A stretch of 36,501 nt of DNA, from positions 1 to 36,501 of the IMG/VR virus record IMGVR_UViG_3300020044_000427. One strand, given 5' to 3'. The notes below the pieces were generated by a model that ran no database searches, was not told the origin of the DNA, and saw nothing but the letters and a program-made list of their open reading frames with translations. This document shows, in pieces, positions 7,601-34,592 of the stretch. A program made the position numbers and the translations under genes. Position 1 is the first letter of the stretch. The number at the start of each line of letters is the position of its first letter. This stretch comes from a virus. Lineage: Duplodnaviria > Caudoviricetes.

Positions 7601-10291
7601 AATGCGTCCATCCAGAATACGGAAAATATCTTCGGTCGAGAGGGTAGGTAGGATCAGTTGCCACTTGCCAATATCAACAGTGTCGATGGCACCACGAAGG
7701 AGTGCCCAGTTTTCCTTGTCGCCACGGGCCAGTTTAACGAGGTTAATTCCATCACTCAGAACGTCAGCCGTATCATTGGTGGCCGCAATCCGCTTCTGGA
7801 TACGGTTCATCTTAGTCCGGATAGCCTTGGCCTTTGCCAGTGCCGTGCGCTTCTGGGCTTCAGTTAGGACAACTGGCTTACCGTTGGAAACCACTTTAGG
7901 TTTTCTAGGCGCAGGCCCGCTCGGGCCACCAGTGGTAGTCGGAGGCGGAGGGGGAGCAGGCGGCGCACCCGTACCACCAGTGGCAGGGACCTCGGACGCA
8001 ACCTCTGCGGATGCTGGCGTAGGCGCAGCTTGCGCTTCAGCGACGCGTTCCTGTGCCCACTGCGCCCCAGCTACACGTGAGAGGGCTACATCGCCGCCTT
8101 CAGATGGCCCAAGGGGGATTTTTGTATTGTCGAGACCGTAGGTTTTAAGCGCGTCGGAGTAGGACATCGGTTCGCGGCCATTGCGGATATCATCTACGCC
8201 CGCAAGGAACGCGTCTTGGTCAAAGTCACGGTCTTGTGCCTCGGAGATAGCAAAGTTTTCAAGGTCTGTTAGGATTTCCTGTGGGGTAGGCGCAGATGTG
8301 GGCTCAATCGTAGGCTCAATCGTAGGCTCAATCGTAGGCTCAATCGTAGGCTCAACCACAGCCGTCTCTGCAACCGTAGGCTCAACCATTTCCGGCGCAG
8401 GCGTAGGCATAGACACGGTGATGCTCGGCGCATTGCGCATCCGTTCATCCATCCCAGCGACGGCTTCATCAATCTTCGCAGATTCTACAGCCTGTTCCTC
8501 GGGGGTAAGTGCAGCCGGGGTGATACCCACTTCACGTGCACTTGCTTGAGCTATTGTTGGGATAGTGCCAGCAGCGGGGGTAGGCGCAACGGCTGCTTCA
8601 ATGGCAGCCTTGACAGGAGCCACAGCCACTTCGTCAATGGAAGGCGCAGCCGGTGCGGCGCGCTCTATGCCCGCTACCTTATACACAATATCGACAGGAT
8701 CAAACTGCTCACCACGGCTGGCTGCATTCACCATCTGGTTGACGGCTTGACCGTATGTTTTTGCGGGTAGTCCTTGCAGTTCAGGCGTAGCAATAACGAT
8801 GTCGGACGCGATGTATTTAGCAGCCGAAGTACGCTCTTTCCGCGTGGGGGCTTCCATGATCGGAGTAATGTCGAATGTAGGTGTAGGTGTAGGTGTAGGT
8901 GTTAGTGTATCGACTCCCGCTCCCTCGCCAACATCAGGAACTGATACGCCAGAAATAGGTCGCTCCAGTCCTCCTGTGACAGCTTCTCCAAGGTCTGGGG
9001 TACCAGTTGTGATTGCCGAGGGTTCGAAATCAGGAGCAGTGCTTGCTCCAACTCCTCCGACGACATCCATTCCGGTATCAACATCGGATGCGACATCAGC
9101 TTCTCCTTCCGGGCCAAGCATAGTGTTAACGATTGCTGTATCGTACAGCTTACCTGCGCCCTTGACGGCTTGATTAAATGCTTGGCGCTGGGTTAGTTCA
9201 GGGTTCTGGTCACGCAGTGCCTGCGTCTCAACGGTCAGTAGCCGCAGATATTCCTGTTCGACTTGAGGAGAATCCCCTAAGTCCGTCTCGGTCTTGGCTT
9301 CTGCCTTACCCCGATTAACCGCTGCATTGACGGCTTCTATACCACCACGACCACCGCCCCCGATACCACCACCGACGAGCGCGCCAAACGCAGCCTGCTC
9401 AAACATTTCTCCAGCGTCGATATCCGATCCGGTAACCACACGTGGGTTAGCATATTCAATAGCCGACTGAATAGCTTCGGTGCCGCCTTCAAGGAGCGCA
9501 GCTTTACCAATGCGCCCGAGGACAGTCTTAGCCGGAGCACCAAATATACCGCCCAAACCCAACTGGTCCAGCGCGGTTACGGCAAGTGCTCCGGGAGCGA
9601 CTTTAGCTAGGTCTGAAAACTCTACGTCTTGCCGACCTTCTAGCTCTGTTGCTTCTCGACCTTGGCTACCAAAATTAGACGCTAACCCCAAACCGGGTAT
9701 CGGAACGGCAGCAGCGAGCATGCCGGGTATACTCTCTGTGCCTTTTTCTAGGATATAAGGTACAACGTTACGTAAGAAGTTTTTCTTTACGTCTTCCTCA
9801 GTGGTAGCACCCTTTATCTCTACGCCCTTGTCGGCTGCAAAACGTCGAGCTTCTTCCGTAAACTGCTTTTTGAGTTCAGGGTCGGATTCGATAGCACGCT
9901 GGGTATCTTTTATATTTGCTGTCGTAGACAGAAGCCCTCTGGAGAAGAAATCCCCGAGCCGATCAAAGAAGCCAGTTTGGGTTTTAATGTCTTCTAGCGC
10001 GCCACGCTGCCCAAGCTCCTGCATATATGCAGTGCGTTCACGTGCTTGTTTTATCGCGGCTTCACGATTGGTGAAGTAATCAAATAGCCCCGGAGCTTCT
10101 ACCTCCTTTAGCGGCTGACGAGCTTGTAACCGCGCTTCAGCGGTAGGCGCAGCCGCCACGGTAGCTGGCACAGGGGTAGGTGCTTTGCTCGCGGCAATCT
10201 GTTCCTTAACCACACGCTGGATAACTTCCATTGGCGTGTCATCAGGAAACTCAAGGACGCGGCCATCGGCAAGTTCGGCGCGTTTTGTCAC
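4634..10291 (-). CDS. Large internal virion / DNA ejection protein (position of T7 gp16 / P22 gp16), 1885 aa
   Basis: Last and largest late gene; N-terminal ADGRVLEFPDDTP motif; Gly/Ala-rich amphipathic segments; Pro/Thr/Ala linker; helical C-terminal half with a hydrophobic stretch. Confidence 0.75.
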   Translation of the reverse strand: MTKRAELADGRVLEFPDDTPMEVIQRVVKEQIAASKAPTPVPATVAAAPTAEARLQARQPLKEVEAPGLFDYFTNREAAIKQARERTAYMQELGQRGALEDIKTQTGFFDRLGDFFSRGLLSTTANIKDTQRAIESDPELKKQFTEEARRFAADKGVEIKGATTEEDVKKNFLRNVVPYILEKGTESIPGMLAAAVPIPGLGLASNFGSQGREATELEGRQDVEFSDLAKVAPGALAVTALDQLGLGGIFGAPAKTVLGRIGKAALLEGGTEAIQSAIEYANPRVVTGSDIDAGEMFEQAAFGALVGGGIGGGGRGGIEAVNAAVNRGKAEAKTETDLGDSPQVEQEYLRLLTVETQALRDQNPELTQRQAFNQAVKGAGKLYDTAIVNTMLGPEGEADVASDVDTGMDVVGGVGASTAPDFEPSAITTGTPDLGEAVTGGLERPISGVSVPDVGEGAGVDTLTPTPTPTPTFDITPIMEAPTRKERTSAAKYIASDIVIATPELQGLPAKTYGQAVNQMVNAASRGEQFDPVDIVYKVAGIERAAPAAPSIDEVAVAPVKAAIEAAVAPTPAAGTIPTIAQASAREVGITPAALTPEEQAVESAKIDEAVAGMDERMRNAPSITVSMPTPAPEMVEPTVAETAVVEPTIEPTIEPTIEPTIEPTSAPTPQEILTDLENFAISEAQDRDFDQDAFLAGVDDIRNGREPMSYSDALKTYGLDNTKIPLGPSEGGDVALSRVAGAQWAQERVAEAQAAPTPASAEVASEVPATGGTGAPPAPPPPPTTTGGPSGPAPRKPKVVSNGKPVVLTEAQKRTALAKAKAIRTKMNRIQKRIAATNDTADVLSDGINLVKLARGDKENWALLRGAIDTVDIGKWQLILPTLSTEDIFRILDGRIPGLTEADRIIQQDVTRFQTKEYLKLADELEQVADFLKKYPKAAQALSDLEFATVAYQVDPTKAATPEEYFAKVDGKAKELRAQIKTEKDPKKKGRLEAKLKNRSKDIESVYVGVPGDERVLGWRDLGRPEFGSGKGREVFKLLRDGHRRDLEAKYDALRLRLMETKKDEALDEALEKLEAQFKPAREQVIYFPAMRFGSYYARVGTGANSIFKLFETPTQRNKFVRVMESRGEEVTETGNVEDLRNQFGQTAGGPLKEVLDLFEGDQKDLGALKSQVFDLWLQTMSAGDMRKHMAPRKMRAGYSTDILKNFANFRRSSINDVKRAQFGEKLRTEISRAKDMVKDMPDREKMNAFIKEVELRTLSDLMPPERGNPYWEGAIQLGNKMAFYQYLANPKTALIQLTQLHIVALPMLAQKYGSAKATAALSKYGFSSLGGFVVSPLKAIKREDGRFTFDWEQPNLLDNPISALKEESDPELYEVLSEGWNEGRDLNLYMDTFANQIGGYGNNDPQQSSALQELMKGRVHTAAWRGTTFAFEAMGTLMHQMERVNREATYMAALELAYRENKKKGQAHAEAKKNAIEAAVGTTLAATFDFSSYNKPRVLNTGVGRLAGQFMSYPYMMTSLLARNMYTAIKVSGLEPGERKAAIQTATGVLFNIGLYAGLTGVPLYGIATTIASLLLWAFDDDEEEGGLSYIDEDGNIKATYNIDWWVRNVWIPKTFGPDGTVANLFDLDDGTAEVLARSVEKGPISAITDIDLSNSVALDFMFFLPRESRADTPEGKVVDYTFSAVTGAAGNVVLDYIKAGKDLMNGYTDRALERLPKLFGNVAKANRFATEGQTNYNRELVGMDADFWSSDKAILQALSFASTEADQRQQQNYEAKSINVKIEKARADFLNKLRKTALDRYQYGVTPETEAAQQQIVKEWVEFNQTYPTHVIGLDSFYEVQNNAVNNAVESYGTRGLPMDPKGVKTPYLSDLYLRRLETEKQ
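8301..8355. repeat. 12-bp tandem repeat (GGCTCAATCGTA)x4 plus partial copy, encoding (EPTI)n
   Basis: Read directly; in frame within the linker of the large protein. Confidence 0.95.
8876..8902. repeat. 6-bp tandem repeat (TGTAGG)x4.5, encoding (TP)n
   Basis: Read directly. Confidence 0.9.
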
Positions 10292-11712
10292 TAGATTGGG
10301 TTACCATTCCTATCAAACTTAATCGTATTGCCGCTACCACCGCCAAACACACGGTTAGTAACCTTTTCAGCCTCGTCCTGTAAATACCTCTGCCCAGCGT
10401 TAATCCCGCCAGCCTTGACGATCCTCTGGTATTCTGGGTCTGTCGCCGCGTTCTGTTTAAAGCTACCGAGCGTATCGGCAAAGAAAGCACCCCTACGCTC
10501 TTGGAGACCCATCCTACCAACTTCGATGTTACCCGCAGTAGAAATCTGCTGCTGCTGGATGCCCGCAGCCGCACTGACTTGTGCCACATAACGACGATCA
10601 GCACTACCCATGTTTTCCCAAAGATTCTGGAAGGAGCGCTGCTTCATGGCGTCCGCCAACGTGCCGTACTTCGCCAGCATATCGAGAGCCTTATCAGCGC
10701 GCTCGGTAATTTCTTTATTACCCATCCGCTCTTCGTCGACCAAAGTTTTCATCACAGCGCGCTGCTCAGCGCGGCGTTCCTTGGCGTTAGCCGCAATACC
10801 CGGTAGAGCTTCCCCGATACCCGCGCTGACAGCCTGAAGCAGAGAACCCGGTGTCGTCGCCATCTTTGCGCCTATTTGACTGAGGGCCGCCCACATGTCT
10901 TCCTTGCGCCGAGCCTTCTGGGTTTCGGGACTCCTCATTTCGTCGAGATACTTGGCGAACTGTTCCGCCCGCTCCGTCTTGCGGGGAGCCGCTTCGGTAT
11001 AACGGTCAAGGTTAGATATTAAGTCACCCGAATAACCGGAGATGTTTTGAGGTGTCTTAAAGTCCGGTGTAGCGGGGAAGTACGACATCCGCGCAGGTCT
11101 GTTGACCGTAGCGTCAACAATAATTTCCCCATCAGGGCCGATCCTGCTTGGAGGCGCAGCGAACTGATCCTGCTCGTCTTCCTCTTCGGGAGGGTTTGCA
11201 AGCAGAGCCGCGACACCCTTAGCTTTAACAGGACCAGCACCAGCGAACGCAACCATACCACCGCCAGCATAGCCGTCGTCAAACCCACCGTTGGTAGGCT
11301 CATCAAACATAGTGTCAGGCACGGGCAGCATAGCTAGACCGCCTTCAGCCATACCCTGTGGAGCCATATCTTGAGGAGGCATAGGAGGCGGAGCCATACC
11401 CTGTGGCGGAGGAGCCATAGGAGGCGGAGCACCCATACCTTGCGCCGGAGCGGGCGGAGCACCCATAGGCGGAGGAGCACCCATAGGAGCCATTTGTGGT
11501 TGACCACCACCTAAAACTTGTTGCGCAACGGACGGTGCCTGCCCAGCTTCCATAACCTGTGCAGAACGCATACGGTCAATAAACATACCGGCAAGTACGG
11601 CAGCAGTAGGGTCAACGACGCCCATCTGCGCAGCCTGCGCAATACGCTGCTTGTTACCAGCATACTCCTTAGCGATGTCTTCTGGTGCTTGAATGCTGAA
11701 CGGCTTAGCCAA
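10291..11712 (-). CDS. Internal virion / ejection protein, 473 aa
   Basis: Synteny; Pro/Met-rich MGAPPP repeats; MAEGG and YAGGG motifs; helical C-terminal half; TTG start with AAGGAG RBS. Confidence 0.7.
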   Translation of the reverse strand: MAKPFSIQAPEDIAKEYAGNKQRIAQAAQMGVVDPTAAVLAGMFIDRMRSAQVMEAGQAPSVAQQVLGGGQPQMAPMGAPPPMGAPPAPAQGMGAPPPMAPPPQGMAPPPMPPQDMAPQGMAEGGLAMLPVPDTMFDEPTNGGFDDGYAGGGMVAFAGAGPVKAKGVAALLANPPEEEDEQDQFAAPPSRIGPDGEIIVDATVNRPARMSYFPATPDFKTPQNISGYSGDLISNLDRYTEAAPRKTERAEQFAKYLDEMRSPETQKARRKEDMWAALSQIGAKMATTPGSLLQAVSAGIGEALPGIAANAKERRAEQRAVMKTLVDEERMGNKEITERADKALDMLAKYGTLADAMKQRSFQNLWENMGSADRRYVAQVSAAAGIQQQQISTAGNIEVGRMGLQERRGAFFADTLGSFKQNAATDPEYQRIVKAGGINAGQRYLQDEAEKVTNRVFGGGSGNTIKFDRNGNPI

Positions 11713-11723
11713 CTTATATCTCC

Positions 11724-13145
11724 TTAACCGGATAACGACCTATACGCACCGAGCGCACCTAAGCCGGTACCAAGTACCTGAGAAGCCATAGATGGGTTCT
11801 GGCCGTATGTAATATTGGTCGTGTTAAGACCTACAGGCAGACCGCGTAGCAGGTTGCTCATATACCCCAACTGCTCGATAGGATAGTCACGCTGACGCAG
11901 GAAGTCAGCATAATACTGGTCGAGCCTCTGCTGTTCCATTGCTTGTGCTTGCCCTGCCGCCGTATTCTGCGCGCCAAGCCGTGCCAAATCAGCCTGCTGC
12001 TGGTACTGCCCAAGGTTACCAAGGGTCTGCGCCATCTGTCCAGTCTGTCCGAAGGCAGCCAGTTGGTTCTGTGCACCAAACTGGTTCGATTGTTCCGCAA
12101 GGCGCTGCGCTTCAAGCGCCGCCTGCTGGTTGGCGAGCAGACCCTGCATACCTGTCTGGGTACCCAACTGCTGCGTACCAAGAGCCGCCTGCAGATTGCT
12201 TTGACCCACTTGTAACCGTGATTGCTGGTTAGCAAGGGCTGCACGAAGTGCTTGATCGGCGTTCATACCCTGTGTCTGCAGCTGTGCTGCGAGGTTCTGT
12301 ACGTTGGCTTGGCTAGATGCGTCGAGGTTAGCGAGAGCCGCCTGCAACCCCGTCTGAGTGCCCAACTGCTGCACACCGAGTTTTGCCTGCAAGTTAGCTT
12401 GAGCCGCCTGCTGCTGCGCCGCCTGCTCGGCGTTAAACTGCTGCATGGCAGCACCATATGCACTCTGCATACCTTGCGCTTCGATATCGCCCATCTGTTG
12501 TCCAAGGGCACGTTCACGCTCTGTGGCAGCGAGAAGTTGACGGGCACCGCCATAAGTACCCTGACGCGCAGCGCCGAGGTCTTGGGCCAACTGCCCCTTA
12601 CGGGCATCAGTAACCGCTTCGCGCTTTTGTACGTCGAGCACGTTGCGCATGTATGGCGACATATACCGCTCAGTCATACCCTGCTGGGTTATGCTGTCTG
12701 GCCCCTGCATCTGGTAGGCGGTTAATTCTGGGGCAAATTGCGTCTGAGCAGCCTGCATCTGCGGAGCATTATAGTTACCCGCTACGACATCCCCAGCGTC
12801 TTGCATCCGGTACTGTTGTAGCTCAGGCAACCCGACTTGTTGCGCAGTAAACTGAGCAGGTGTGTAGTTAGCAGCGCGAAGCGAACCCTGACCGGCAAGT
12901 GCCGCAAGCCCCGAAGCGTCCGCAAGTTGCTTAGGGGAAGTCATGTTAAGGTAGTTTTGCTGGATTTGCTGTTGAGCAGGTGTGAAGTCAGCGATCCGCT
13001 CGTACTTATATGGCGTATAGCCCTCGTTGGACCACGCCTGCGTACGCTGCATCACATTCTCAAAATACGGTCTTGCGTATTCCGGTATGGTATTTGTAGT
13101 CGTGTTTACCGTCTGTTGTGTCGGTGCGCTGCTACCAGAGGCCAT
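11724..13145 (-). CDS. Gln/Ala-rich DNA transfer (pilot/ejection) protein, 473 aa
   Basis: N-terminal SGSS..TQQTV..IPEYARPY, coiled-coil Q/A repeats, C-terminal Gly-rich hydrophobic tail (VLGTGLGALGAY), typical of podovirus ejection proteins. Confidence 0.7.
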   Translation of the reverse strand: MASGSSAPTQQTVNTTTNTIPEYARPYFENVMQRTQAWSNEGYTPYKYERIADFTPAQQQIQQNYLNMTSPKQLADASGLAALAGQGSLRAANYTPAQFTAQQVGLPELQQYRMQDAGDVVAGNYNAPQMQAAQTQFAPELTAYQMQGPDSITQQGMTERYMSPYMRNVLDVQKREAVTDARKGQLAQDLGAARQGTYGGARQLLAATERERALGQQMGDIEAQGMQSAYGAAMQQFNAEQAAQQQAAQANLQAKLGVQQLGTQTGLQAALANLDASSQANVQNLAAQLQTQGMNADQALRAALANQQSRLQVGQSNLQAALGTQQLGTQTGMQGLLANQQAALEAQRLAEQSNQFGAQNQLAAFGQTGQMAQTLGNLGQYQQQADLARLGAQNTAAGQAQAMEQQRLDQYYADFLRQRDYPIEQLGYMSNLLRGLPVGLNTTNITYGQNPSMASQVLGTGLGALGAYRSLSG

Positions 13146-13146
13146 C

Positions 13147-13580: not shown

Positions 13581-16031
13581 TTACGCCCCTAAGCCTTTAG
13601 CGAGCTTCGTGTCTTGTCCACGCCCAGCGCGTTTGCGTGCTTTGTGGGCCTTTTCCATCATGGCATAGAGCTTCTGCGTACCGCGCTTCGCACTACCACC
13701 GCCAAGGCGCTTTACAGCTTTGGGTTGGAAGATAACTTCGTCGCGGGCTACGCGTGCTTCTTGTTTGCCACCGATCCGTGCAGGGACAGAGTCGCTTACC
13801 CCATCACCGCGACCGCGCACTGGCTGACCGCCTAGGCGCTGGAGGAGTTCAATACCAGCGTTGCTGCTACCGTTACCGAGTTCTGAAACCGTGCGGGCGT
13901 CAACTACAAAGGCTCCGTTGTGCATGTTTACCGGTCCGCCTGCAGCAAGTTCTGGGTTGTTAGGCATCCCAAACTCTGCATTGCTGCTGCCACCGCCACC
14001 GCCATATTGCTTAGCGAGCGCATCAAAGAACGCATCTGTGCCGATAAGTGATGCTAGGTTAGCGTTTGGATTAGTCTGCACTGCACCTGCGGAAGGCCCA
14101 AAGCCGAAGTCCATCTCGCCGCCTACGTTTCCGGTATCCATAATGGTACCTGCATTCGGGTTAGGTTGCCGGTTAGCCTGCTGGTTATAGATGTTCATGT
14201 ACGGACTGTTTAGGTCAAAGCCTGCAAGCCCATCAAAGCCTGTATAACCCCTATTGCTGGCAGGTCCCGCTGTGTTAGCAGGTCTCGTCGTACCAGCAGT
14301 GTTGGGCAGATCAAAATTCAGTTCCCCGCCAGTACCGGTAGTTGTTGAGGCAGGTGCCGTAGTAGCAGGCGTACCGGCAGCGGCAGCGGCAGCGGCGCGG
14401 GCCGCAGCATTAGCTTGAGCGGCAGCACGGATACGCTCAGAAGGCGAACCACCAACATAAGTACGTGAAGCAGTGATCGCTCCGGGTGATGTTTGGTAAC
14501 GTGCAGTAGCTTCTGGTAGCTTTGCAAACAGTTCCGAACCCATGGTATATGGGTCGCGCTTATCAGTGACGAAGTCATCCTTCTGCGTGAACTTCGGCGT
14601 GTACAGGTCTTTAAGCGTCTGCACACCGGGACTATCGTATGTAGCACCGGGGATATCTGGGCGGTCAGTAAGCGTCGCACCTGTACCGGTACCGGGAGTT
14701 ATACTACCCTTGGTCGGGTCGATGGTCGTCTTAAGTGTATCGGTTACCGTGACTTTGTCTTCGGGGGGCTTAACGCCGCCTCCGCCGCCGGTATCTGGCT
14801 GGGGGAAAGATACTCGAGGTTTATCGTCTATAACCGTTGGAGCAGCAGGGGGTTTTACATATTCCCATTGGTACTGGTCGTTGAGACGGAACTGTTTGCC
14901 ACCTAGATTACTAAGCGTACCTGCCCCCATACCCATTTGTTTTAGTGTCTCACCCGGTGTAAGGCCGGTACGAACGCCTGTATTAGGGTCAACCATACCT
15001 CGAGTAAGCTGTCTTTGTGTGAACGTCGCGGGGTCAAACGCCGAAGGGTCAAAATCACCCTCTTTAACATCACCACCTTCTGCATAGCCACGGCGCTCGC
15101 CTGCGGCAGTTAAGAAACCAACTGGGTTGACTTCGTCGAAGAACTGGATTTCGCCCTCGCCTTCAACCCTAGGGTCAAACTTGCGCGGTATTGTGCGGTA
15201 CGGACCTTCGTACTTGAACTGATAACCCTCTTCGTCGGGATTGTAAGGTTTGTATGTAGGCTGCGAGGCATCCGAAATACCACTTAGTACACCCATACCC
15301 GCGATCATCGGAGCGTTCTTAGCAATGATACCGGGAGTACCAGCAGGGAGGCCAGCACGTGCAGCAGCACCGAAGTTTTGAGCCAGACCAGCAAGACCCG
15401 TTTTAGCTGCTGTAGTACCAGCAGTGGTGGCTGTGTTGGCCAGCATACTGTCCGCCGCGAGTCCACGCGCCATGTTAGCAGATGATCCAAAACCCCCAGC
15501 GGTCGATCCCGCTGCTGTTGACGCTAGTTTAGTTCCAGTAGCCGCAGGTGCGAGACCACCAGCAAGCGAAGCGCCGCCATATGCTTGGAGACCGGCCATC
15601 AGACCTTTCGAGAGGCTACCTGTTTTAGCGACAGAGCCAGCAGCAACAAGGCCAGCAGCAGCAAGGGGGCCGACACCGGGTATAAAGTTAAGTCCGATAC
15701 CAAGGAGTGTAGGTAACAGCTTCTTGAGGAAGCCAGCTTCAGGAAGGCCAGTCTCTGGGTTAATAGTAAGTGAGCCACCATGCGCCATAGCTAGGCCTTG
15801 GAGGCTGTTAACCTCGCCGGGTGTCATATGGACAAGCATGGAGTCATCGCCACGACCGTAGCTCTGAAGCTCCTTCGCCATAGGATTAGCAGTCACAGAG
15901 AGACCACCCTGCGCAGGGAGGCCACCAGACATACCCGGAACTTGCTGACCAAGCACAGGAGGATTACCCATAGTAGGCCTCATGCCACCTACCGGTGTAT
16001 ATGTTGGCGGAGCCGTCTGTACGTCCATCAT
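13581..16031 (-). CDS. Internal virion protein, 816 aa, with conserved termini and a low-complexity middle
   Basis: N-terminal GRGDDSMLVHMTPGEV...TINPETGLPEA, hydrophobic Gly/Ala segment, C-terminal GDGVSDSVPA / NGAFVV domain. Confidence 0.7.
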   Translation of the reverse strand: MMDVQTAPPTYTPVGGMRPTMGNPPVLGQQVPGMSGGLPAQGGLSVTANPMAKELQSYGRGDDSMLVHMTPGEVNSLQGLAMAHGGSLTINPETGLPEAGFLKKLLPTLLGIGLNFIPGVGPLAAAGLVAAGSVAKTGSLSKGLMAGLQAYGGASLAGGLAPAATGTKLASTAAGSTAGGFGSSANMARGLAADSMLANTATTAGTTAAKTGLAGLAQNFGAAARAGLPAGTPGIIAKNAPMIAGMGVLSGISDASQPTYKPYNPDEEGYQFKYEGPYRTIPRKFDPRVEGEGEIQFFDEVNPVGFLTAAGERRGYAEGGDVKEGDFDPSAFDPATFTQRQLTRGMVDPNTGVRTGLTPGETLKQMGMGAGTLSNLGGKQFRLNDQYQWEYVKPPAAPTVIDDKPRVSFPQPDTGGGGGVKPPEDKVTVTDTLKTTIDPTKGSITPGTGTGATLTDRPDIPGATYDSPGVQTLKDLYTPKFTQKDDFVTDKRDPYTMGSELFAKLPEATARYQTSPGAITASRTYVGGSPSERIRAAAQANAAARAAAAAAAGTPATTAPASTTTGTGGELNFDLPNTAGTTRPANTAGPASNRGYTGFDGLAGFDLNSPYMNIYNQQANRQPNPNAGTIMDTGNVGGEMDFGFGPSAGAVQTNPNANLASLIGTDAFFDALAKQYGGGGGSSNAEFGMPNNPELAAGGPVNMHNGAFVVDARTVSELGNGSSNAGIELLQRLGGQPVRGRGDGVSDSVPARIGGKQEARVARDEVIFQPKAVKRLGGGSAKRGTQKLYAMMEKAHKARKRAGRGQDTKLAKGLGA

Positions 16032-24588: not shown

Positions 24589-25599
24589 TTAAGTTAGGCC
24601 ACCATGCGCGTTCGAGCAAGCCCCCAACCCGTAACGGGCAACCGTGAGGTCGCCAAAGTCCGTAGCACTGCCATTGGTTGCAAAGGTAATGTAATCAATA
24701 ACATTCGAGTATGTTGTGGTATAACCACCAGCAAACACCCCCCTAGTGGCGGAGCCTGTCCCTGATAGGTAAGTCCTAGTTACGCTAAGGTTTCCAAAAG
24801 AAGAAGCATTCCCTAGGGTCGCTATGGTTACTACAGATATAGCAGCCGTATTCGTCGAACCGTTATCGCCGCCCCCAAAGACTGCCCTAGTAGCTGATGA
24901 ACATGCACCGCTATACTCAACCAACGCGTTCAAGTCGCCAAAGTATGTTGCATCCCCGGTGGACGTGAGGGTTACATAATCTATGGTGTTGACCACAGTG
25001 TTTGTGTAGCCGCCCCCAAACAATCCCCGTGTCAGAGACCCGCACCCGGAAAGTGCATATCGCGCCAAAGATAAAGACCCAAAGCTGGTGCTATTGCCAG
25101 TAGTGGCCGTAACCACGTATGTGATTGTGTTAACTCGGGCACCGCTCACCATGCCGCCCGCGAACAAAGAAATTACGTTAGACGCGCACGCCGCAGGGTA
25201 GCCTGTGTTAGCAGGTAAATCCCCAAAATCCGTAGCATTCCCCGTGGACATGATTGTTACGTAATCAATTGTGTTGCCAGAACCGCCAGCACCCCCCGCA
25301 AATAGCCCACGCACGCGAGAGGATGCGCCCGTAAGGAAATACCTAGCGGCTGTAAGATCGCCAAATGTGGTTGCGTTCCCAGTGGTCGTTATAGTGATGT
25401 AGTCAATACGGTTTGTAGTCAGGAAGCCGCCGCCGAAGACTGCTCGGGGTGTAACGCCAGCAGTCGGCCAGAGCCCTTGGTCAGTCCAATAGCTTGCGTC
25501 CGAGAGTGTCCATACGCCCGGAGCAGCCCCATCTTGGAACGGTCCTGCGGGGGTGACGGGAGTACCGCGTATGATACCACCGGGCCAAGTCTGGCTCAT
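24589..25599 (-). CDS. Kelch-like 6-repeat beta-propeller tail protein 3
   Basis: Six ~46-aa repeats RG[VL]FxGG...IDYxTIxxxGNATDFGDL..R; ends SNAHGGLT. Confidence 0.8.
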   Translation of the reverse strand: MSQTWPGGIIRGTPVTPAGPFQDGAAPGVWTLSDASYWTDQGLWPTAGVTPRAVFGGGFLTTNRIDYITITTTGNATTFGDLTAARYFLTGASSRVRGLFAGGAGGSGNTIDYVTIMSTGNATDFGDLPANTGYPAACASNVISLFAGGMVSGARVNTITYVVTATTGNSTSFGSLSLARYALSGCGSLTRGLFGGGYTNTVVNTIDYVTLTSTGDATYFGDLNALVEYSGACSSATRAVFGGGDNGSTNTAAISVVTIATLGNASSFGNLSVTRTYLSGTGSATRGVFAGGYTTTYSNVIDYITFATNGSATDFGDLTVARYGLGACSNAHGGLT

Positions 25600-26561
25600 G
25601 TCAACCCTCCGTTTGCGTTTGACGCGCCAGCTAAATACCGACGCCTGACCGTAATGTCACCAAAGTCGATTGCATTACCGACTGACGCGATGGGAACATA
25701 GTCAATCACATTTACAAACGCCGAGGTGTAAGCGTCGATGCCTGCCGCGAAAACTCCCCTACTGCGAGACGAGCACGCACCGATCGCCGTGCGAGCGACC
25801 GTTAGGTCCCCAAAGAAAACCCCGTTACCAAGCGTTGCGATGGTAACATACTGGATATTCCCGGCGGATACTTGAAAAGTGCTTGACGCAAAGAGGCCGC
25901 GAGAATTAGACGAACAGCCAGCGTTGCCCCCCTTGTTGCCAGATAGCTGCCCGAAGGTGATAGCATTCCCTGTAGAAGCTATAGTGACGTAGTCAATTAC
26001 GTTGGTGGTGTTCGAAATACCGGCCCCGAACAACCCACGTGTTGGGGAAGAACAAGACCCTGTGGCGTAACGCGTGGTAGTCAAACTACCAAAAGAGATA
26101 CTGTTACCCGTCGATGCAATTGTGATATAGCGAATAACTTGAGTAGCAATAGTAGCCGTTTGACCGCCTCCAAAAACCCCCCGCGTACTAGAGTTACACC
26201 CCCCGAACTCGTACGCCGCAGGAGACATAGACCCAAAACTGATAGCGTTACCAGTAGACGCAATCGTGATATAATCCATCGTGGTAGAGACAGCAGCAAC
26301 ATAACCGCCAGCCCAAACACCGCGAGTGCTGGAGGCACATGCACCGGTACCATACCGGGCAACCGTGAGGTCACCAAAGTCCGTAGCGTTACCAGAACTA
26401 GTTATGGTGATGTAGTCTAAGACGTTTGAGCCAGTAAACGACGAGTCCTGCCCACCGCCAAATACACCCCTTGCGGAAGCATCGTCTGTGACTGGCCAAA
26501 GACCGTCTGCAATAGCCTGTGTAGCTTGCCTAAGTGTCCATACTCCAGAGGCGCTGGGCAT
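25596..26561 (-). CDS. Kelch-like 6-repeat beta-propeller tail protein 2
   Basis: Same six repeats; N-terminal ASGVWTL...GLWP; ends SNANGGLT. Confidence 0.8.
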   Translation of the reverse strand: MPSASGVWTLRQATQAIADGLWPVTDDASARGVFGGGQDSSFTGSNVLDYITITSSGNATDFGDLTVARYGTGACASSTRGVWAGGYVAAVSTTMDYITIASTGNAISFGSMSPAAYEFGGCNSSTRGVFGGGQTATIATQVIRYITIASTGNSISFGSLTTTRYATGSCSSPTRGLFGAGISNTTNVIDYVTIASTGNAITFGQLSGNKGGNAGCSSNSRGLFASSTFQVSAGNIQYVTIATLGNGVFFGDLTVARTAIGACSSRSRGVFAAGIDAYTSAFVNVIDYVPIASVGNAIDFGDITVRRRYLAGASNANGGLT

Positions 26562-27748
26562 CAGAGACCTCCGTGACCGTTAGAGCAGGCTGCCAAAGAC
26601 CCTCGTGGAGTCGTGAGGTCACCAAAATCAACTGCGTTACCCAACGACGCAATAGTCACGTACTGGATTACATTTTGCTCGCCCCCGCTGGTGTTGCCTC
26701 CTCCAAATGTAACCCTAGTCGGTGAAGAGCACGCGGACAACCACGTTGAACCGCCGAGTAGATCACCGAAGTCTAGCGCGTTACCCGTGGTGGCGATTGT
26801 TACGTACTGGATAACATTATTGCTATTGACGAACCCACCACCAATAATACCCCGAGTTGAATTAGAAGCGGCGGCGCTAGCGCGTGGAAACAACAATGTC
26901 TGCCCAAAGTCAGTGCTATTTCCTGTAGTGGCTATAGTTATAAACACGATATTATTGACGTCGGAACCGCCCCGCTCCCCGCTTATAGAAAGCCCTCGGG
27001 TAGTTGATGCACATCCGCTACTTCCAGCGGTACCTCCAGCTGGTAGCTGACCAAAAAAGATGCTGCTCCCCGTAGATGCTATAGTTATATATTCAAAATT
27101 GGCAGTTATGAAGCCGCCGGATATATACCCCGTCGAAAACACCCCACGCGTGCCGTTGGATACCGCCGAAAACTGTTGGGTCTGGTTTGTTAAATCTCCA
27201 AAGTCCACTGCGTTCGCGGGTACTGTAATCGACACATAGCATATAGTGTTCGTGTAGGACGGGTTTGCACCTCCAGCCCACACACCCCGTGTAGAGGACG
27301 AACAGCTAGCCGAGTAATTAACTGTCTCAAGCAGGTCACCAAAGTCAGTAGCGTTTCCGGTAGTCGAAAGCGCAATTCGGTCTATTACGTTACTAAAAGC
27401 TCCGCCACCAAAGAGGCCAAAAACGGCTGTCGGGGAGACGCTGGCGCTAGGTGCACTGTTTTCCGAGACGCCGAAAGTGTTAATCGCAGTGACTGTAAAC
27501 GTGTAGCTTGTGTCATTGGTTAGTCCAGACACCGTAACCGGGGAGATAACCCCGGTCCCCGTAAAGTTTCCGGGACTACTCGTTATAACGTAGCTGGTTA
27601 TAGGCGTCCCCCCCTGCCGCGTAGGGGCAGTAAAAACTACGCTAGCTGAAGCATTCGCAGGGTACGCCACAACCCCCGTAGGCGCGTACGGGGTCACGAG
27701 AGGATTAAGTCCTACGCTAAGGTTAGCTGCCGGAAACCGCTTAGACAC
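26561..27748 (-). CDS. FN3 domain plus kelch-like 6-repeat beta-propeller tail protein 1
   Basis: Probable GTG start 27748; FN3 pattern APTGVVA...FTAP..GGTPITSY...GLTNDTSYTFTVTAIN; six repeats; ends SNGHGGL. Confidence 0.8.
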   Translation of the reverse strand: MSKRFPAANLSVGLNPLVTPYAPTGVVAYPANASASVVFTAPTRQGGTPITSYVITSSPGNFTGTGVISPVTVSGLTNDTSYTFTVTAINTFGVSENSAPSASVSPTAVFGLFGGGAFSNVIDRIALSTTGNATDFGDLLETVNYSASCSSSTRGVWAGGANPSYTNTICYVSITVPANAVDFGDLTNQTQQFSAVSNGTRGVFSTGYISGGFITANFEYITIASTGSSIFFGQLPAGGTAGSSGCASTTRGLSISGERGGSDVNNIVFITIATTGNSTDFGQTLLFPRASAAASNSTRGIIGGGFVNSNNVIQYVTIATTGNALDFGDLLGGSTWLSACSSPTRVTFGGGNTSGGEQNVIQYVTIASLGNAVDFGDLTTPRGSLAACSNGHGGL

Positions 27749-27758
27749 CGAGCGATGC

Positions 27759-28154
27759 CTAACTAAGTTCTTCGTAGCTGACGCTGTAAGTAATCTGACC
27801 GGCGGTACCAGAAGTGACGGTGATGCTGGTGCCCTCTTCAAGATAAAGGCCAGTTGTCTTGTCAACCACAATTAACGAGGCGTCAGCAGGTACCGAAACC
27901 GTAGAGGCAATCGGGAAGGCCGTGCCGCCTGATGGGGCTGACCCCTGCGCTACCGCGCCGTTGGTGTAGATTGACACCGTTGCGTCAACGGCGTTCGTAC
28001 CATTAATATTGGCGGCCACAACCTGATTGATCTTCAGCACCGTATTAGATGCCGCCGCGTTCCGTACCAGAACAAGGGCCACCGTGCCTCCCGGTGTTAA
28101 GTACGTTGTCTTACCCGTAATCGTTGTGAGTGATGCTATATTCGGCGCTGCCAC
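27759..28154 (-). CDS. Tail-fibre-associated small beta-sandwich protein
   Basis: MAAPNI...IASTVSVPADASLIV...YLEEG...SYEELS; AAGGAG RBS. Confidence 0.65.
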   Translation of the reverse strand: MAAPNIASLTTITGKTTYLTPGGTVALVLVRNAAASNTVLKINQVVAANINGTNAVDATVSIYTNGAVAQGSAPSGGTAFPIASTVSVPADASLIVVDKTTGLYLEEGTSITVTSGTAGQITYSVSYEELS

Positions 28155-29518: not shown

Positions 29519-29530
29519 CTTAAGGCCTCC

Positions 29531-29815: not shown

Positions 29816-29824
29816 CTATATCTC

Positions 29825-30505
29825 CTACCCTACCGGATACCGGACTTGTGGTGTCCGGTACATATCTTGACGGTTTTTGCCTTCGCCAAGCTGTTTGAGC
29901 ATACCCATCGCTTCCGAATACCGTTTCTGATACTCAGCGTTGATGTCCTGCTCGCCCTTCATGAAGATATACGCCTCAATAAGCGCACCATAAAGCAACG
30001 CACTGTCGAAGTTATCACCCAACCACGACGTACCCGCAGTCACAATCGACTCTGGGTAGTAGAAGTAATGTAGTTCGACTGCATAGTTAGCGTCCGGCGT
30101 CGGCCCCAAAATGTACGAGTTCTCGTCAAAGTAGGCGTAGTGCGTGGGTATACCTGTCGTAGCCGGATTAGGGAACGACTGCCGGATGTAGCTCACATCC
30201 TTGTTGAGTAGGTACTCATAGCGTCCAGTAGCGTCGATAACAGCCATGGAGAAGTTAGCCAGCCAGTCTGAAGGCACCGAAAGATACTTGTTACCTGACG
30301 TCATATTACCCGTCACGTTCTTACGTAGGTCAAGCAGCTGCACCGTGTTAAAGATGCGCTGCTCAGCCTGTTCGATAAACGTGTTGATCTGTTCGGCAGA
30401 CGTAAACGTCACCGGAGTGGAGCCGTCAGAGCCGGTCCATGAGGTGTTGGGGAAGTCGTTTTCGACGTACCCCTTGATTGTCTCGAACAGTTCAGCGTAA
30501 TTCAT
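29825..30505 (-). CDS. Head-tail adaptor / tail tubular protein
   Basis: INTFIEQAEQRI, LGPTPD..Y.VELHY, ALLYGALIEAY pattern of phage adaptor proteins. Confidence 0.7.
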   Translation of the reverse strand: MNYAELFETIKGYVENDFPNTSWTGSDGSTPVTFTSAEQINTFIEQAEQRIFNTVQLLDLRKNVTGNMTSGNKYLSVPSDWLANFSMAVIDATGRYEYLLNKDVSYIRQSFPNPATTGIPTHYAYFDENSYILGPTPDANYAVELHYFYYPESIVTAGTSWLGDNFDSALLYGALIEAYIFMKGEQDINAEYQKRYSEAMGMLKQLGEGKNRQDMYRTPQVRYPVG

Positions 30506-30705
30506 TATGCCAACTTCTTGCTGCTATGCGTGCCCTTAGTCGCCGCACCCGTACCGCGAGTTTTCACAGTCTGAGTGTTAGCTACTTTATTAGGGTAGCC
30601 GTTGTTGCCCATATCAACCGTGTAGTTCATTGGTTGTTTTGCACGCGATGGAAGCGGGTTTTCACCTGCACCAAGAAACGGCCAACCTGTGTTATCCTTA
30701 GCCAT
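30505..30705 (-). CDS. Small basic protein (66 aa)
   Basis: Likely ATG 30705; C-terminal KTRGTGAATKG motif shared with neighbouring basic proteins. Confidence 0.6.
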   Translation of the reverse strand: MAKDNTGWPFLGAGENPLPSRAKQPMNYTVDMGNNGYPNKVANTQTVKTRGTGAATKGTHSSKKLA

Positions 30706-30706
30706 A

Positions 30707-30916
30707 TTAGATACCCTTCTTAGGTACGCTACGTACAGATTTCTTCTGGTTTGCGACTTTAGCAAGATTGCGGCCCATAGCACCCATTTGTGCGTTGGTC
30801 TTGCCGCCCTTGGCCATCTTAGTCAGGGGTTTGCCCTTGTGCATTGCGCGCTCGTGCTTGTGCACGGCCTTCGCTGCAGTGGCTTTATCCTGCTTCATAT
30901 CTTTCTTATCCATCAC
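30707..30916 (-). CDS. Small Lys-rich protein with MAKGG motif
   Basis: 69 aa; AVHKHERAMHKGK, KMAKGGK. Confidence 0.7.
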   Translation of the reverse strand: MMDKKDMKQDKATAAKAVHKHERAMHKGKPLTKMAKGGKTNAQMGAMGRNLAKVANQKKSVRSVPKKGI

Positions 30917-31308
30917 TAATTCTCCGTCTCGATTGTTACGGTCCCTACTTGACCATTACCTAATAGCGTATTTGGAAGACCAAATAAACCCAAAGGATTA
31001 TCTAATCCAACAGGGTTCCATCCCCACTGAATTACACGGCTACCATCGCTTGGGTTGTTATTTGGGTTAAGGCCCGATTGGTAATAGCTGTTGTCTGGGC
31101 GTGGGTCGCGTAGTGCCTGTGGGTCATCCACGGGATACATACCCAACTGAAGCTGGGGCTGATCTGGTTCCCAGCAAGTGGGGCATACAAGGATGTTGAC
31201 ATTCTTGGTCTTAATGACGAGCCGCTTGAGTTCCTTCAGCTTGTACCGAAAGTTACAGCGGTCGCACTGGGCGATTGCCCATTTACCAGATGCAAACCGA
31301 TTAGGCAC
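30916..31308 (-). CDS. Zn-finger-like protein (CxxC...CxxC)
   Basis: CDRC and CPTC; DPQALRDPRPD. Confidence 0.7.
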   Translation of the reverse strand: MPNRFASGKWAIAQCDRCNFRYKLKELKRLVIKTKNVNILVCPTCWEPDQPQLQLGMYPVDDPQALRDPRPDNSYYQSGLNPNNNPSDGSRVIQWGWNPVGLDNPLGLFGLPNTLLGNGQVGTVTIETEN

Positions 31309-31311
31309 AAA

Positions 31312-32022
31312 TCACCGGAAATACTGACGAGGTGCGATGCGCAATGGCGCTTTCTCACGGTCCTCATCAGCAGCCTGTTGCCAGAGTTCTTCGTATTCAG
31401 CCTTCAACATCTGGCTGCGCTCAAGCGCGCCGGGAACCTTCAAGGATAGGTGATACGCGAGACCAGCCACCAAACAAGGGAGGAACCTAAACGGTATATC
31501 TTGCGTAGTAACACCATCACCAGCATCCTGTAAGCGGCGCAAGCGCCAGTAAACAAAGGTATAATAGTTGCTCTGGTCTGGGGCTGGCCACACATTAATC
31601 TGCGGTTCTTTCACACCAGTAACCGGATAGTCTGCACCTGACTGGCGGTTGATCCACACTTGGATAGGCCGACCCTGCGCGTTCTTGTTTGGAATAGTCG
31701 AGTATGTGTCGATGCTGATACGGCTAATAGTGATGTCGGTTTGCTGCTGCCCAGTCTGGGTGCGCACGACATGCTCAAGTAGGTCTATGGTATCTACAGG
31801 TAGGTCATAGACAATCTGCCCCTGAACCATAGGGATCGAACCTTGCTCGATGGTCCACAGGTTAATACCACGGTTAGCCCACTCAATGGTAAGCAGGTTC
31901 AAACTACGACGTGCAGTGCGTAAGTCATAGCCCGTGCGAAGCTCAGCCCCGCAACGCTCAAAAGCCTCTTCGACTAGGTCGTTGAGGTTAAGATTAAATG
32001 TGCTGGTTCCGCTAGTGGTCAT
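31312..32022 (-). CDS. Head completion / head-tail connector protein
   Basis: EEAFERCG, ARRSLNLL..EWANRG.NLW, VWPAPD, FLPCLVAGLAY. Confidence 0.7.
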   Translation of the reverse strand: MTTSGTSTFNLNLNDLVEEAFERCGAELRTGYDLRTARRSLNLLTIEWANRGINLWTIEQGSIPMVQGQIVYDLPVDTIDLLEHVVRTQTGQQQTDITISRISIDTYSTIPNKNAQGRPIQVWINRQSGADYPVTGVKEPQINVWPAPDQSNYYTFVYWRLRRLQDAGDGVTTQDIPFRFLPCLVAGLAYHLSLKVPGALERSQMLKAEYEELWQQAADEDREKAPLRIAPRQYFR

Positions 32023-32414
32023 CGGTATTTAGCTGCCTTCTTCGCTATGGCCTTCGGCTGCTTAACGAACTGTTTGCCCGCCTTAATGCCTGCGCGTTTC
32101 GCCTTACTTGTAGCAGAGTATTCCTGCGAACTCAAAGCCTCACGTGCTTTCTTAGGTAAGTAGCGCTCGCCCGTAGCTTTCTTGCCCTGCGTAGACGGCT
32201 TGCCCGACTTGGTTCCCCAGTCTTCCTTGGTCCATTTGGACAGAGACTTCTGAGCTTCCGTCTTCGGACCGCTATAGCCACCGCCAGACTTCTTGTACCG
32301 CTGCGTAGCAAGCTGAGCTTTTCTCGCGGACCATTGCCCCGGATTGCCGCCTTTGTCGCCAGCTTTTACACTAGCGACAATGCGTTTCCATTTGGGTTCG
32401 TCCGACCGGGCCAT
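32019..32414 (-). CDS. Basic protein resembling the DUF5872 family (recalled, not searched)
   Basis: KGGNPGQWSARKAQ, KKSGGGY, KWTKEDW, ERYLPKKA. Confidence 0.65.
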   Translation of the reverse strand: MARSDEPKWKRIVASVKAGDKGGNPGQWSARKAQLATQRYKKSGGGYSGPKTEAQKSLSKWTKEDWGTKSGKPSTQGKKATGERYLPKKAREALSSQEYSATSKAKRAGIKAGKQFVKQPKAIAKKAAKYR

Positions 32415-32704
32415 TACTTCTTCTTGAAGCCCTTAAGCATCTGCGCAAACCGTGCACGCTGACCTAGCTTACCGGGGGCCTTAGCGGCCTTAGCAAGCTT
32501 ACCGGCTGGGATCGGCTTACCCTTCTTGGCACCAAGTGCCGAGCGCAGTGCACCCGGCTTCTTGATCGCTTTGGAGATGTCAAGCTTCGCCTTACCGCCC
32601 TTAGCATACACAGCCACCTCGTCGGGGTTATCCTTACGGCGGATTGTCTTTTTACCCGGCATTTTGGAAGGGTTTATGGCCCCCATACCCCGACAAGCGC
32701 GCAT
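32414..32704 (-). CDS. Small Lys-rich protein with YAKGG motif
   Basis: MRACRGMGAI segment, YAKGG, then AIKKPGALRSALG segment. Confidence 0.7.
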   Translation of the reverse strand: MRACRGMGAINPSKMPGKKTIRRKDNPDEVAVYAKGGKAKLDISKAIKKPGALRSALGAKKGKPIPAGKLAKAAKAPGKLGQRARFAQMLKGFKKK

Positions 32705-33771
32705 TACTTACGTGCCCCTTTGCAACGGGTCTTACCCTTAGTAGCAATACCGTCAATCCCACGAACGGAGCCACCCTTAGCGTAGCAAGCACCGCCCTTG
32801 TTCATCTTGACCTGCTTGCCTTTGGTGAGACCCTTTTTGGCAACGCCGTTAGCAGCTTTGTGTCCGCTAGTAAGACCACCCGCAGCAAACTTTTTCGCCG
32901 CTTTCATAGAACCGCCCTTTGCGGCTTTCTTAGGTACAAGGCTATTCATACGCGCTAGAATGCTCTGTATCGCCGCCTGATGCTGCGCTGGGGTACTGCG
33001 ATTATCCATCTGGAGCTTACGCAATTCACCTTGCGCCCGAGTAATTTCTTTCAGTGGTACGCCCTGATTAAGGAAGTTCCGAGAAACAGAGCTAAAATCC
33101 CTAGTAGACTGATTGCGGTCAAAATTTGCGGGAGTGCTTGCTTGGGTAGTGGGATTAGCAGTAGCCGACGCATTCCTGTTTGGCGTAGCCGAACTGTACT
33201 TCGCCTGAAGAATAGCTTGCGCGTTGTGTGCGCGGCGTTCTGCATCAGTCCCCTGAGTAGTAGCCGACATGCCCGGACCCACAGTGGGCCGTGCCGCAGT
33301 ATTAGCCGCTGGTGGTGCAACCGAAGTAGTAGTGGGCCGTGCAGCGGTATTAGCCGCTGGCGGTGCAGTGTTTGATGCTGCTGGTGGCGCGGTGTTTGTC
33401 GTTGCTGGTGGCATAGTGGACATACCACCCACAGCCATTTTCTTGACCTTGCCGCCTTTTGCGTAGCCTTTGCCGCCATCGGCCTTCTTGACCATTGCAC
33501 GACCCTTGGTGTCAGCAGACTTCTTCATCATCGCAGCGCCAAACTTAGTTGCCGCAAATGACTTAGCTTTGCCACCATTCTTCAAACCGCATGACGCCGT
33601 TTTCCCACCTTTAGCCATACCCGGCTTAGCATTGCGCTTTTCCAGTTCCTTAAGGAACTCTTTACGCTCTGGGGTCAACGGTACGGTGTTTGCACCGCCA
33701 GTGATTGGTTCTTTCGGCGTTGGCCTGCTTGACTGGCTACCGCCTGTCTTTGGCTTTTTCTTATCCATCAT
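32704..33771 (-). CDS. Lys-rich, multi-GG-motif low-complexity protein (355 aa)
   Basis: Nine xxxGG motifs flanking a Pro/Ala/Thr-rich insert; coupled start and stop with neighbours. Confidence 0.7.
   Translation of the reverse strand: MMDKKKPKTGGSQSSRPTPKEPITGGANTVPLTPERKEFLKELEKRNAKPGMAKGGKTASCGLKNGGKAKSFAATKFGAAMMKKSADTKGRAMVKKADGGKGYAKGGKVKKMAVGGMSTMPPATTNTAPPAASNTAPPAANTAARPTTTSVAPPAANTAARPTVGPGMSATTQGTDAERRAHNAQAILQAKYSSATPNRNASATANPTTQASTPANFDRNQSTRDFSSVSRNFLNQGVPLKEITRAQGELRKLQMDNRSTPAQHQAAIQSILARMNSLVPKKAAKGGSMKAAKKFAAGGLTSGHKAANGVAKKGLTKGKQVKMNKGGACYAKGGSVRGIDGIATKGKTRCKGARK
33283..33367. repeat. Imperfect 37-bp direct repeat, period 48, encoding APPAANTAARPT
   Basis: agtgggccgtgccgcagtattagccgctggtggtgca vs agtgggccgtgcagcggtattagccgctggcggtgca. 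Confidence 0.85.
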
Positions 33772-34016
33772 GACTTTGTCCTTCCTATCTCTTCTACCTT
33801 AGCTTCAAGACGTTCAAAGGCCCGATCAAACCGGTCCCCTAACCTATCGACCATCGTATTCATCTCACTACGTGTGACATGGTCACGTGCCACTTCTTCA
33901 CGGGTTTTGTTGAGTAGGATGCCGAGACGATCCAACTCGTCGATCTTGCCTTTAAACAAGAAGCCCATGATTGCCACCGTTGCGCTTAGTGCGATGTTCC
34001 ATACCATCATCTCCAT
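33768..34016 (-). CDS. Small protein with N-terminal TM helix and coiled coil (82 aa)
   Basis: MEMMVWNIALSATVAIMGFLF then charged helix KTREEVARDHVT...LEAKVEE. Confidence 0.7.
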   Translation of the reverse strand: MEMMVWNIALSATVAIMGFLFKGKIDELDRLGILLNKTREEVARDHVTRSEMNTMVDRLGDRFDRAFERLEAKVEEIGRTKS

Positions 34017-34017
34017 G

Positions 34018-34272
34018 TCAGCACTTCCAAGCCCGGAGTGACTTGTTGATGCGGCTGTTAGGGTCATTTGCGGTCTTCTTCGATGTGAGCTTCTTCTTCA
34101 TCCCAGACATCCGAGCGCAGAATGACTTCTTACGTGGGCCACCTTCAGGCTGGGGTGCCTTGAGACCGGGCTTACCCGGATTGGCTTTGTTGTAAGACGC
34201 ACGACCCTTGGCGTTCAGCCCGCCAGACTTCGCTTTGCCTTCTTTGCGTGTCCAAGCGGGCGTCTTAGCCAT
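34018..34272 (-). CDS. Small highly basic conserved phage protein (84 aa)
   Basis: MAKTPAWTRKEGK..GGLNAKGRASYN...SFCARM...SLRAWKC. Confidence 0.75.
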   Translation of the reverse strand: MAKTPAWTRKEGKAKSGGLNAKGRASYNKANPGKPGLKAPQPEGGPRKKSFCARMSGMKKKLTSKKTANDPNSRINKSLRAWKC

Positions 34273-34592
34273 CAGACGAACCGTCCTTTCGTCTTACCCT
34301 TGGTAGCGCAGCCGTCGGCACGCTTCGAAGCAGTTGAGCCACCCTTGGCCATTTTCTTGACCTTGCCGCCCTTACGCATCGTAGGCTCGTTTTCTTCCCC
34401 TACCAAGGGACGAGTGCCTTTTTTCTCTTTCTCTTTCTCTTCGTCTTTGTCGCGGGCGCTTTTAGCGAGGTACGACATAGGAAGAAGCATACCCATACCC
34501 GAGTCGGCCAGCTTGGCCATACCTTTACCGAACATGCCCTTACCGGTTAGCGCCCCTGCGAGCGGCGAAATGTCACCTAACTTAATACCCAT
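34272..34592 (-). CDS. Small basic protein with MRKGG/MAKGG motifs (106 aa)
   Basis: C-terminal KKMAKGGSTASKRADGCATKGKTKGRFV. Confidence 0.7.
   Translation of the reverse strand: MGIKLGDISPLAGALTGKGMFGKGMAKLADSGMGMLLPMSYLAKSARDKDEEKEKEKKGTRPLVGEENEPTMRKGGKVKKMAKGGSTASKRADGCATKGKTKGRFV

Follow-up and report, generated by a model that had tools for sequence, protein, structure and literature searches.

A bulky-Ala-x-Gly-Gly tag shared by predicted ejection and basic proteins of a short-tailed phage, and its possible role as a maturation cut site

Six proteins encoded on a stretch of 36,501 nucleotides of viral DNA (IMG/VR record IMGVR_UViG_3300020044_000427; the whole stretch is called the window here) share a short peptide tag that ends in two glycines. 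The 36.5-kb window is a phage fragment, 59% complete, that encodes SU10-type adaptors, a nozzle-like protein, an ejection-like protein and small basic proteins. Its adaptor matches the cultured phages DSL-LC04, CRP-901/902, HTVC023P/027P and MinM2, and the phage is short-tailed kin of HTVC023P and DSL-LC04. The tagged proteins, 69-816 amino acids (aa) long and of low complexity, are predicted ejection or cargo proteins and basic proteins (Table 1). Terminase, portal, scaffold and capsid genes lie outside the window, and ten close relatives (G001-G010, 93-100% complete) were therefore brought in.

Table 1. Tagged proteins and related features of the window (homologue counts from 240 related loci where tag carriage is given)
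Feature	Position	Strand	Tag or remark
106-aa basic protein	34272..34592	-	MRKGG 34365-34379, MAKGG 34338-34352; tag in 43/43 homologues
Conserved 25-residue basic C-terminal peptide	34275..34349	-	Starts at tag Ala
DUF6321 basic protein	34018..34272	-	No strict tag; presence tracks tag across genomes
355-aa basic low-complexity protein	32704..33771	-	Seven strict tags plus KADGG and AAKGG; tag in 23/23 homologues
Second copy of 25-residue peptide, C-terminus of 355-aa protein	32707-32781	-	
96-aa basic protein	32414..32704	-	YAKGG 32594-32608; tag in 42/50 homologues
69-aa basic protein	30707..30916	-	MAKGG 30803-30817; tag in 58/58 homologues
816-aa predicted ejection/cargo protein	13581..16031	-	YAEGG 15072-15086, LAAGG 13935-13949; strict match in 125/131 homologues
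MAHGG in 816-aa protein	15774-15788	-	Chance match
N-terminal type A domain of 816-aa protein	15735..15857	-	Full tag ahead in many homologues
Tag-led C-terminal module of 816-aa protein, residues 696-816	13584..13946	-	Candidate tag reader
473-aa DNA-ejection-like protein, PHROG 4287	11724..13145	-	No tag in window
473-aa predicted ejection protein	10291..11712	-	MAEGG 11338-11352, YAGGG 11257-11271; tag in 29/29 homologues

A first-pass annotation had counted 16 strict copies of the tag, confined to these six proteins. A regular-expression scan of 43 annotated window proteins with the strict pattern [MYFL][ARKN]xGG returns exactly 16, all in the six and none in the other 37, and the two variants that had been listed, KADGG and AAKGG, are present as well. 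Fifteen of the strict copies stand as tags, which together with the variants gives 15 + 2. The sixteenth, MAHGG at residue 82 of the 816-aa protein, is a chance match, because it is part of a conserved N-terminal domain and its column is variable in homologues, reading ARGG, QMGG, RRGG or SRGG. The window total is modestly above chance, with 16 copies against about 9 expected in 2000 shuffles that keep GG pairs (P(>=16)=0.017). Since this excess is weak and the pattern was picked post hoc, after inspection of the data, enrichment was tested on other genomes. The real signal is the concentration of the tag in few proteins and its conservation across genomes. The 355-aa protein alone carries seven tags where 0.6 are expected with GG kept, and copies within one chain are sometimes only 7-11 residues apart. 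Judged from the sequences, the true consensus is bulky-Ala-x-Gly-Gly.

In the ten complete relatives, 125 strict copies occur in the 69 members of the homologous families, where 30 are expected, one of the six families having been grouped by BLAST partly via the tag-led module described below. The tag is not enriched in the 199 other virion proteins of these genomes (25 seen, 46 expected). Among 240 related loci surveyed per protein family, carriage in the tagged families lies between 42/50 and 58/58 (Table 1), compared with 1/137 for the nozzle, 0/152 for the adaptors, 0/25 for the capsid, 0/18 for the portal and 1/18 for the scaffold. These sequences are mutually related, so the counts measure conservation and not independent origins. 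The single scaffold exception (L048:1686-2621) carries FAEGG near its N-terminus. Fixed matches of the chance type do exist: the terminase has FRRGG in 10/10 relatives, and 20 glycosyltransferases of the same genomes contain nine matches. The tag is heritable, enriched in six families, placed at the starts of conserved modules with the spacing of a mapped cut in phage T5, and found together with one particular module.

That module makes up the C-terminal 121 residues of the 816-aa protein and starts at its LAAGG tag. It is 75-100% identical among the 120 homologues listed, and 5,422 cluster representatives match it at E<=0.001. When sites are located through the downstream module, without use of the tag (n=203), GG is found in 201, Ala in 92% and F, Y, L or M before the Ala in 73%, while positions farther upstream are free (3.7-3.9 bits). 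At the other end of the protein, the tag ahead of the type A domain has decayed to PAQGG in the window; at LAH-form sites of this domain GG lies upstream in 60/60 and Ala in 96%. Homology between the type A and type B modules is not supported (hhalign 0.9%). The tags of two basic proteins lead a third element, the 25-residue peptide, whose conservation begins at the Ala, with variable residues upstream (alignment A3). This peptide, often with a Cys, recurs near-unchanged within each genome on a number of basic paralogues, including examples outside the window (loci L004, L024, L052, L056 and L067), and appears to be a separate binding module. In the PHROG 4287 family, MAKGG lies at or adjoining the protein start in 6/50 homologues; in these, loss of the initiator Met would by itself produce the N-terminus expected from a cut.

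The module and the tag tend to occur together across genomes. It is present in 10/10 close relatives and, in a shorter form, in 5/5 tag-bearing GenBank records (HTVC023P, DSL-LC04, HTVC103P, MinM2 and MW202675), for which tag counts beyond the script patterns were made by eye. A profile search found it in 0/13 records of the CRP-901 clade, a set that includes five contigs at least 96% complete and the isolate; the same search also missed the module in lambda, T5 and crAss001, so its sensitivity is limited. Near the capsid or adaptor gene, the tag is borne by 171/281 small basic proteins in the window's clade and by 0/138 in the CRP-901 clade. A weak, decayed trace of a type A domain without tag in CRP-901 gp72 (L162:38688-41261; E=0.03) suggests loss and not primary absence. 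Among 38 families profiled, core head genes are common to both clades, and the module and DUF6321 alone track the tag, the module with a profile of its own as the measure. Since the tag-negative clade has them too, the capsid, scaffold and portal proteins, GroES and the 158- and 205-aa proteins were rejected as readers of the tag. DUF6321 is absent from the four CRP-901-clade genomes profiled, and the DUF6321 protein of HTVC023P is itself preceded by a tag.

These distributions bear on one alternative, in which nothing reads the tag. It would then be a recombination joint as well as a conserved initial turn that a small number of mobile modules have in common, copied through low-complexity proteins by duplication. 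Many copies do lead a recognisable module (type A, type B or the 25-residue peptide), and the excess over the whole window is modest. Yet identical spacing precedes four or more modules without demonstrated mutual homology, single tags also occur in a scaffold protein and at the N-terminus of an ejection protein, and the tag is missing from every small basic protein of the module-less clade. A tag without a reader is rather improbable.

In the window the module is internally duplicated, giving two profile matches per genome, and an Asp and a Glu are invariant across 20 rows of podoviruses and siphoviruses (alignment A2). A conserved Ser was considered as nucleophile and rejected, as Ala occupies the position in the window, HTVC023P, MinM2 and others. 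HTVC103P gp79 (L417:6136-7431) is a 431-aa protein with several tags and the module at its end; besides the GG form it has variant tags ending in G-D, YAIGD and YAEGD. Its gene lies between the portal gene and a 309-aa unannotated gene, probably the scaffold, directly before the capsid gene. Head proteases are usually encoded between portal and scaffold or capsid genes. By co-occurrence, gene position and the invariant acids, the module would be the best phage candidate for an enzyme acting on the tag. In an AlphaFold2 (AF2) model of the module, with a predicted local distance difference test score (pLDDT) of 83, the first strand begins directly after GG and the tag itself is of low confidence. 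A BFVD search with this model returned uncharacterised phage proteins only, and a wide fold search (VIA) reached a best Z of 3.4.

The same combination of tag and module occurs in the tail proteins of siphophages, which the first-pass annotation had overlooked along with the module itself. The DSL-LC04 module matches 493 phage records, and among the 60 listed most are tape measure proteins (TMPs). Eight of these 60 were picked for host diversity (five annotated TMPs, the Pan1 tail tape measure gene and two hypotheticals); by eye, a tag precedes the module in 8/8, and a second tag follows it clearly in six and more weakly in two. Lambda gpH has the layout FATGG(733)-module-YATGG(778). Its module aligns with that of the window at hhalign 94.5%, against at most 18.5% for shuffled and other-window controls, and phmmer relates the module to JBD30 gp46 (E=0.004) and Douge gp16 (E=0.005). 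A scan for lambda-type modules returned near-identical copies only. The window form is a duplicated version of what has been called the tape-measure 'hook': residues 1022-1066 of JBD30 gp46 are the predicted hook, and a cut at 1066 is speculation only (PMC11445458). Lambda gpH matures to gpH* and gpHC, of about 78 and 14 kDa, with site and enzyme stated to be unknown in a 2025 account (PMC12617516). A cut at 733/734 (a slash marks a cut throughout) is computed to give 79.6 and 12.5 kDa.

Lambda gpH and JBD30 gp46 resemble the window protein in having the same module led by a tag, with another tag after the module in lambda. They differ in that the window module is duplicated and sits in a podovirus protein, the window substrates are not tail tape measure proteins, and the tag occurs there on module-less proteins as well. 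Of the window tags, only LAAGG precedes the module homologous to those of lambda, JBD30 and Douge, and the rest stand ahead of different modules. As tails are assembled separately from heads, a pure head-packaging code would probably not account fully for the tag.

The one mass-mapped cut at such a sequence is that in the tail protein pb2 of phage T5. This protein is cut into pb2* and pb2C, and intact masses of 121,683 and 9,702 Da place the cut after R1127 (PMC10038345, PMC11937500). The sequence there is FVPR/AEGGMM, and residues 1128 to the end compute to 9,701.7 Da. R-A-[E/N/S]-G-G is kept in 3/3 distant T5-like phages, with a fixed Ala and a free x. In common with what is predicted for the window system, the substrate pb2 is an ejected virion protein, and the R/A-E-G-G at its cut is followed by a short Gly-Glu-containing element. 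Unlike the window phage, T5 has one site in one tail protein, compared with 15-17 sites in six predicted head-cargo proteins, and Arg before the Ala where the window phage has mostly M, Y, F or L. The form x-A-x-G-G lies at a cut or a module joint in T5 (R/AEGG), lambda (F-ATGG) and the window and its relatives alike.

A second boundary comes from gp45 of crAss001, a head cargo protein (C1) whose domain PF25725 lies on the portal wing and was modelled over residues 425-552 (PMC10172136). The resolved segment starts at Ala425 of N/AFGG and ends directly before F/AYGG. gp45 has three strict or loose copies of the pattern and further [AK]-x-GG copies by eye, and in 33 homologues A-x-GG occurs 132 times against 73 expected. 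Its likeness to the tagged window proteins, which are predicted cargo, lies in its several [A/S]-x-G-G joints and in a resolved domain that starts at the Ala of one. Taken together, the mass-mapped T5 cut and the start of gp45 at A425 point to a cut before the Ala and not after GG.

The first-pass annotation had proposed a tag for the head interior and/or cutting after GG, with the adenovirus and T4/phiKZ head proteases among its precedents; the position and model of the cut are not supported. A cut after or between the two glycines by an adenain- or deubiquitinase-like protease would fit the near-equal constraint on both Gly (205/234 and 205/239 sites) and the onset of the first AF2 strand directly after GG, and the lambda masses accommodate it equally well. 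The T5 mass data, however, place the cut four residues earlier, and no such protease family was found in the window or among 34 other proteins of the complete relative G005. The tag has its bulky residue three positions before the first Gly. The adenovirus consensus has its bulky residue one position nearer to GG, which also counts against a cut after GG. Such a cut is very unlikely.

The gp45 comparison also lends itself to a role without any cut, in which the tag would be a docking peptide for the module, portal or scaffold that gathers cargo under the portal in the manner of gp45. The restriction of the tag to predicted cargo would be expected of a docking peptide; its many copies per chain, some closely spaced, would suit avidity, and it co-occurs with the module. 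A-F-G-G moreover falls within the modelled range of the portal-bound crAss001 domain, and crAss_CARG1 was the nearest named family in two ESM-atlas queries (0.84; 0.80 and 0.79, to be read as leads only). Against docking, TMPs carry the same tag and module while assembling in tails and not in heads, and the T5 cut mapped by intact mass coincides with the tag. Nor is homology to the crAss C1 domain supported: PF25725 gave no Pfam match, was found in 0/5 genomes and reached at most 1.8% in hhalign with 17- and 12-row profiles. The crAss_CARG1 fold was not listed in the PDB searches with the module, and a second AF2 model made for the C1 comparison (pLDDT 73, searched in BFVD) shared none of the module's top-50 matches. 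Docking without cutting is, on balance, unlikely.

The reading preferred here, with a probability of about 55%, is that the tag is a maturation cut site on predicted head-internal proteins, cleaved between a bulky residue and Ala (x/A-x-G-G). This supports the first-pass view that predicted internal and small basic proteins have a tag in common, which proves heritable, and makes maturation cleavage, one of the roles then proposed, the likeliest. The tagged proteins would enter the procapsid as precursors. Cutting would then split the ejection proteins into pieces that can be threaded separately, and from the basic proteins it would release short cationic peptides beginning with A-x-G-G, which may help to condense or neutralise the DNA. 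Among the window products would be a 121-residue free module and a 25-residue C-terminal basic peptide; computed examples of the cationic pieces are 25-63 residues long with net charges of +6 to +19.

There are precedents for such processing. The adenovirus protease processes basic core precursors, and the head proteases of T4 and phiKZ process internal proteins; these systems likewise use one short motif common to unrelated internal proteins, including small basic ones. The window system differs from them in that no such protease was found, that capsid and portal are without the tag, and that the likely cut is before Ala, with recognition mainly downstream.

Several points weigh against a cut at the tag. 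In the window's own phage group cleavage is a prediction from sequence and no cut is recorded, and the tagged proteins are placed in the virion on the strength of their composition, the position of their genes and a single PHROG match. Ahead of the Ala the residue is not constant (F, Y, M, L, A, K, R or N). The T5 site is itself disputed, an older study having placed it at V1148 +/-1 and R1127 being also a trypsin site (PMC11937520); a rebuttal states that trypsin was not used. The T5 element downstream of the cut scores 0.07% in hhalign against the module profile. The lambda masses fit roughly and do not distinguish a cut before Ala from one after GG (79.6 versus 79.9 kDa). The gp45 start at 425 may mark only the onset of ordered density, and 'cleav' occurs 0 times in the main text of the crAss001 paper, with no gp45 cleavage reported in the text searched. 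Further points concern the module as the acting enzyme: the module-negative clade is a single loss event, DUF6321 tracks the tag nearly as well (4/5 tag-bearing GenBank records), Foldseek gave no PDB match to the module model at E<=0.001 and no solved protease fold, and the module core has only about 50 residues with no conserved Ser.

If the tag is cut, two kinds of enzyme deserve equal, tentative consideration: the tag-led module itself, or a complex that it builds, and a host protease. Another phage protein is a more doubtful third. The host is kept in play by a 1973 paper on the cut in the T5 tail, whose title reportedly mentions 'selective host involvement'. As the first-pass annotation had stated, no head-protease or adenain-like family is recognisable in the window, and the 34 further proteins of G005 searched beyond it yield none either (Pfam and PHROG profiles on 29/32 window proteins and the 34 of G005, a search at profile level that does not cover every open reading frame). 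One peptidase-like match alone came up, a DUF2201_N protein in G005. In the head modules of G005 and DSL-LC04 no encoded protein is a known prohead protease, and the available parts of PMC8954989 and PMC13033339 state no cut sites. The DUF2201_N putative metallopeptidase was rejected as the cutter, being present in only 6/10 relatives and in the early region; its gene in G005, a putative metallopeptidase/VWA gene (L182:17174-18361), adjoins a MoxR-type ATPase. DSL-LC04 has a 150-aa gene annotated 'ATP-dependent protease' (L163:21530-21982). A GroES-like co-chaperonin is encoded in the head module of G005 (7278-7724, L180) and in HTVC023P, CRP-901, DSL-LC04, MinM2 and MW202675, so that it occurs in tag-positive and tag-negative clades alike and does not track the tag.

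A more specific and speculative proposal, unlikely as it stands, is that the module of about 50 residues is a self-processing peptidase with an Asp/Glu pair. It would cut x/A-x-G-G in cis in siphophage TMPs and would have been redeployed in trans as a head maturation enzyme of HTVC023P/HMO-2011-type podoviruses, acting on ejection and basic core proteins. If true, a self-processing module would account for the 50-year-old unmapped cut of lambda gpH, which the tag predicts at F733/A734 (and Y778/A779).

Cleavage is already known both for tape measure proteins and for head cargo. A search of the open-access literature, with subscription journals outside its scope, returned no description of the tag or of a bulky-Ala-x-Gly-Gly code shared by siphophage tails, HTVC023P/HMO-2011-type podovirus cargo and crassvirus cargo. 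New here are the disappearance of both tag and module from one clade, the place of the module gene in HTVC103P, and the start of the resolved crAss001 gp45 segment at A425. A shared cut site would connect siphophage tail-ruler maturation with the processing of cargo in podoviruses of a widespread group, possibly also in crassviruses. For the many unannotated small basic genes of such phages it would suggest a function open to test, the supply of precursors for short cationic core peptides, with the CRP-901 clade as a natural negative control.

Two other groups of genes lie on the minus strand of the window. Between the adaptors, 30916-31308 encodes a protein of 130 aa that is conserved and contains two CxxC pairs, the Cys of which are absent from the HTVC023P and CRP-901 counterparts. 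At 24589-27871, three adjacent Gly/Thr-rich repeat proteins of 336, 321 and 436 aa contain many GG pairs without the tag and share a recurring 'FGDL' repeat of about 42 residues.

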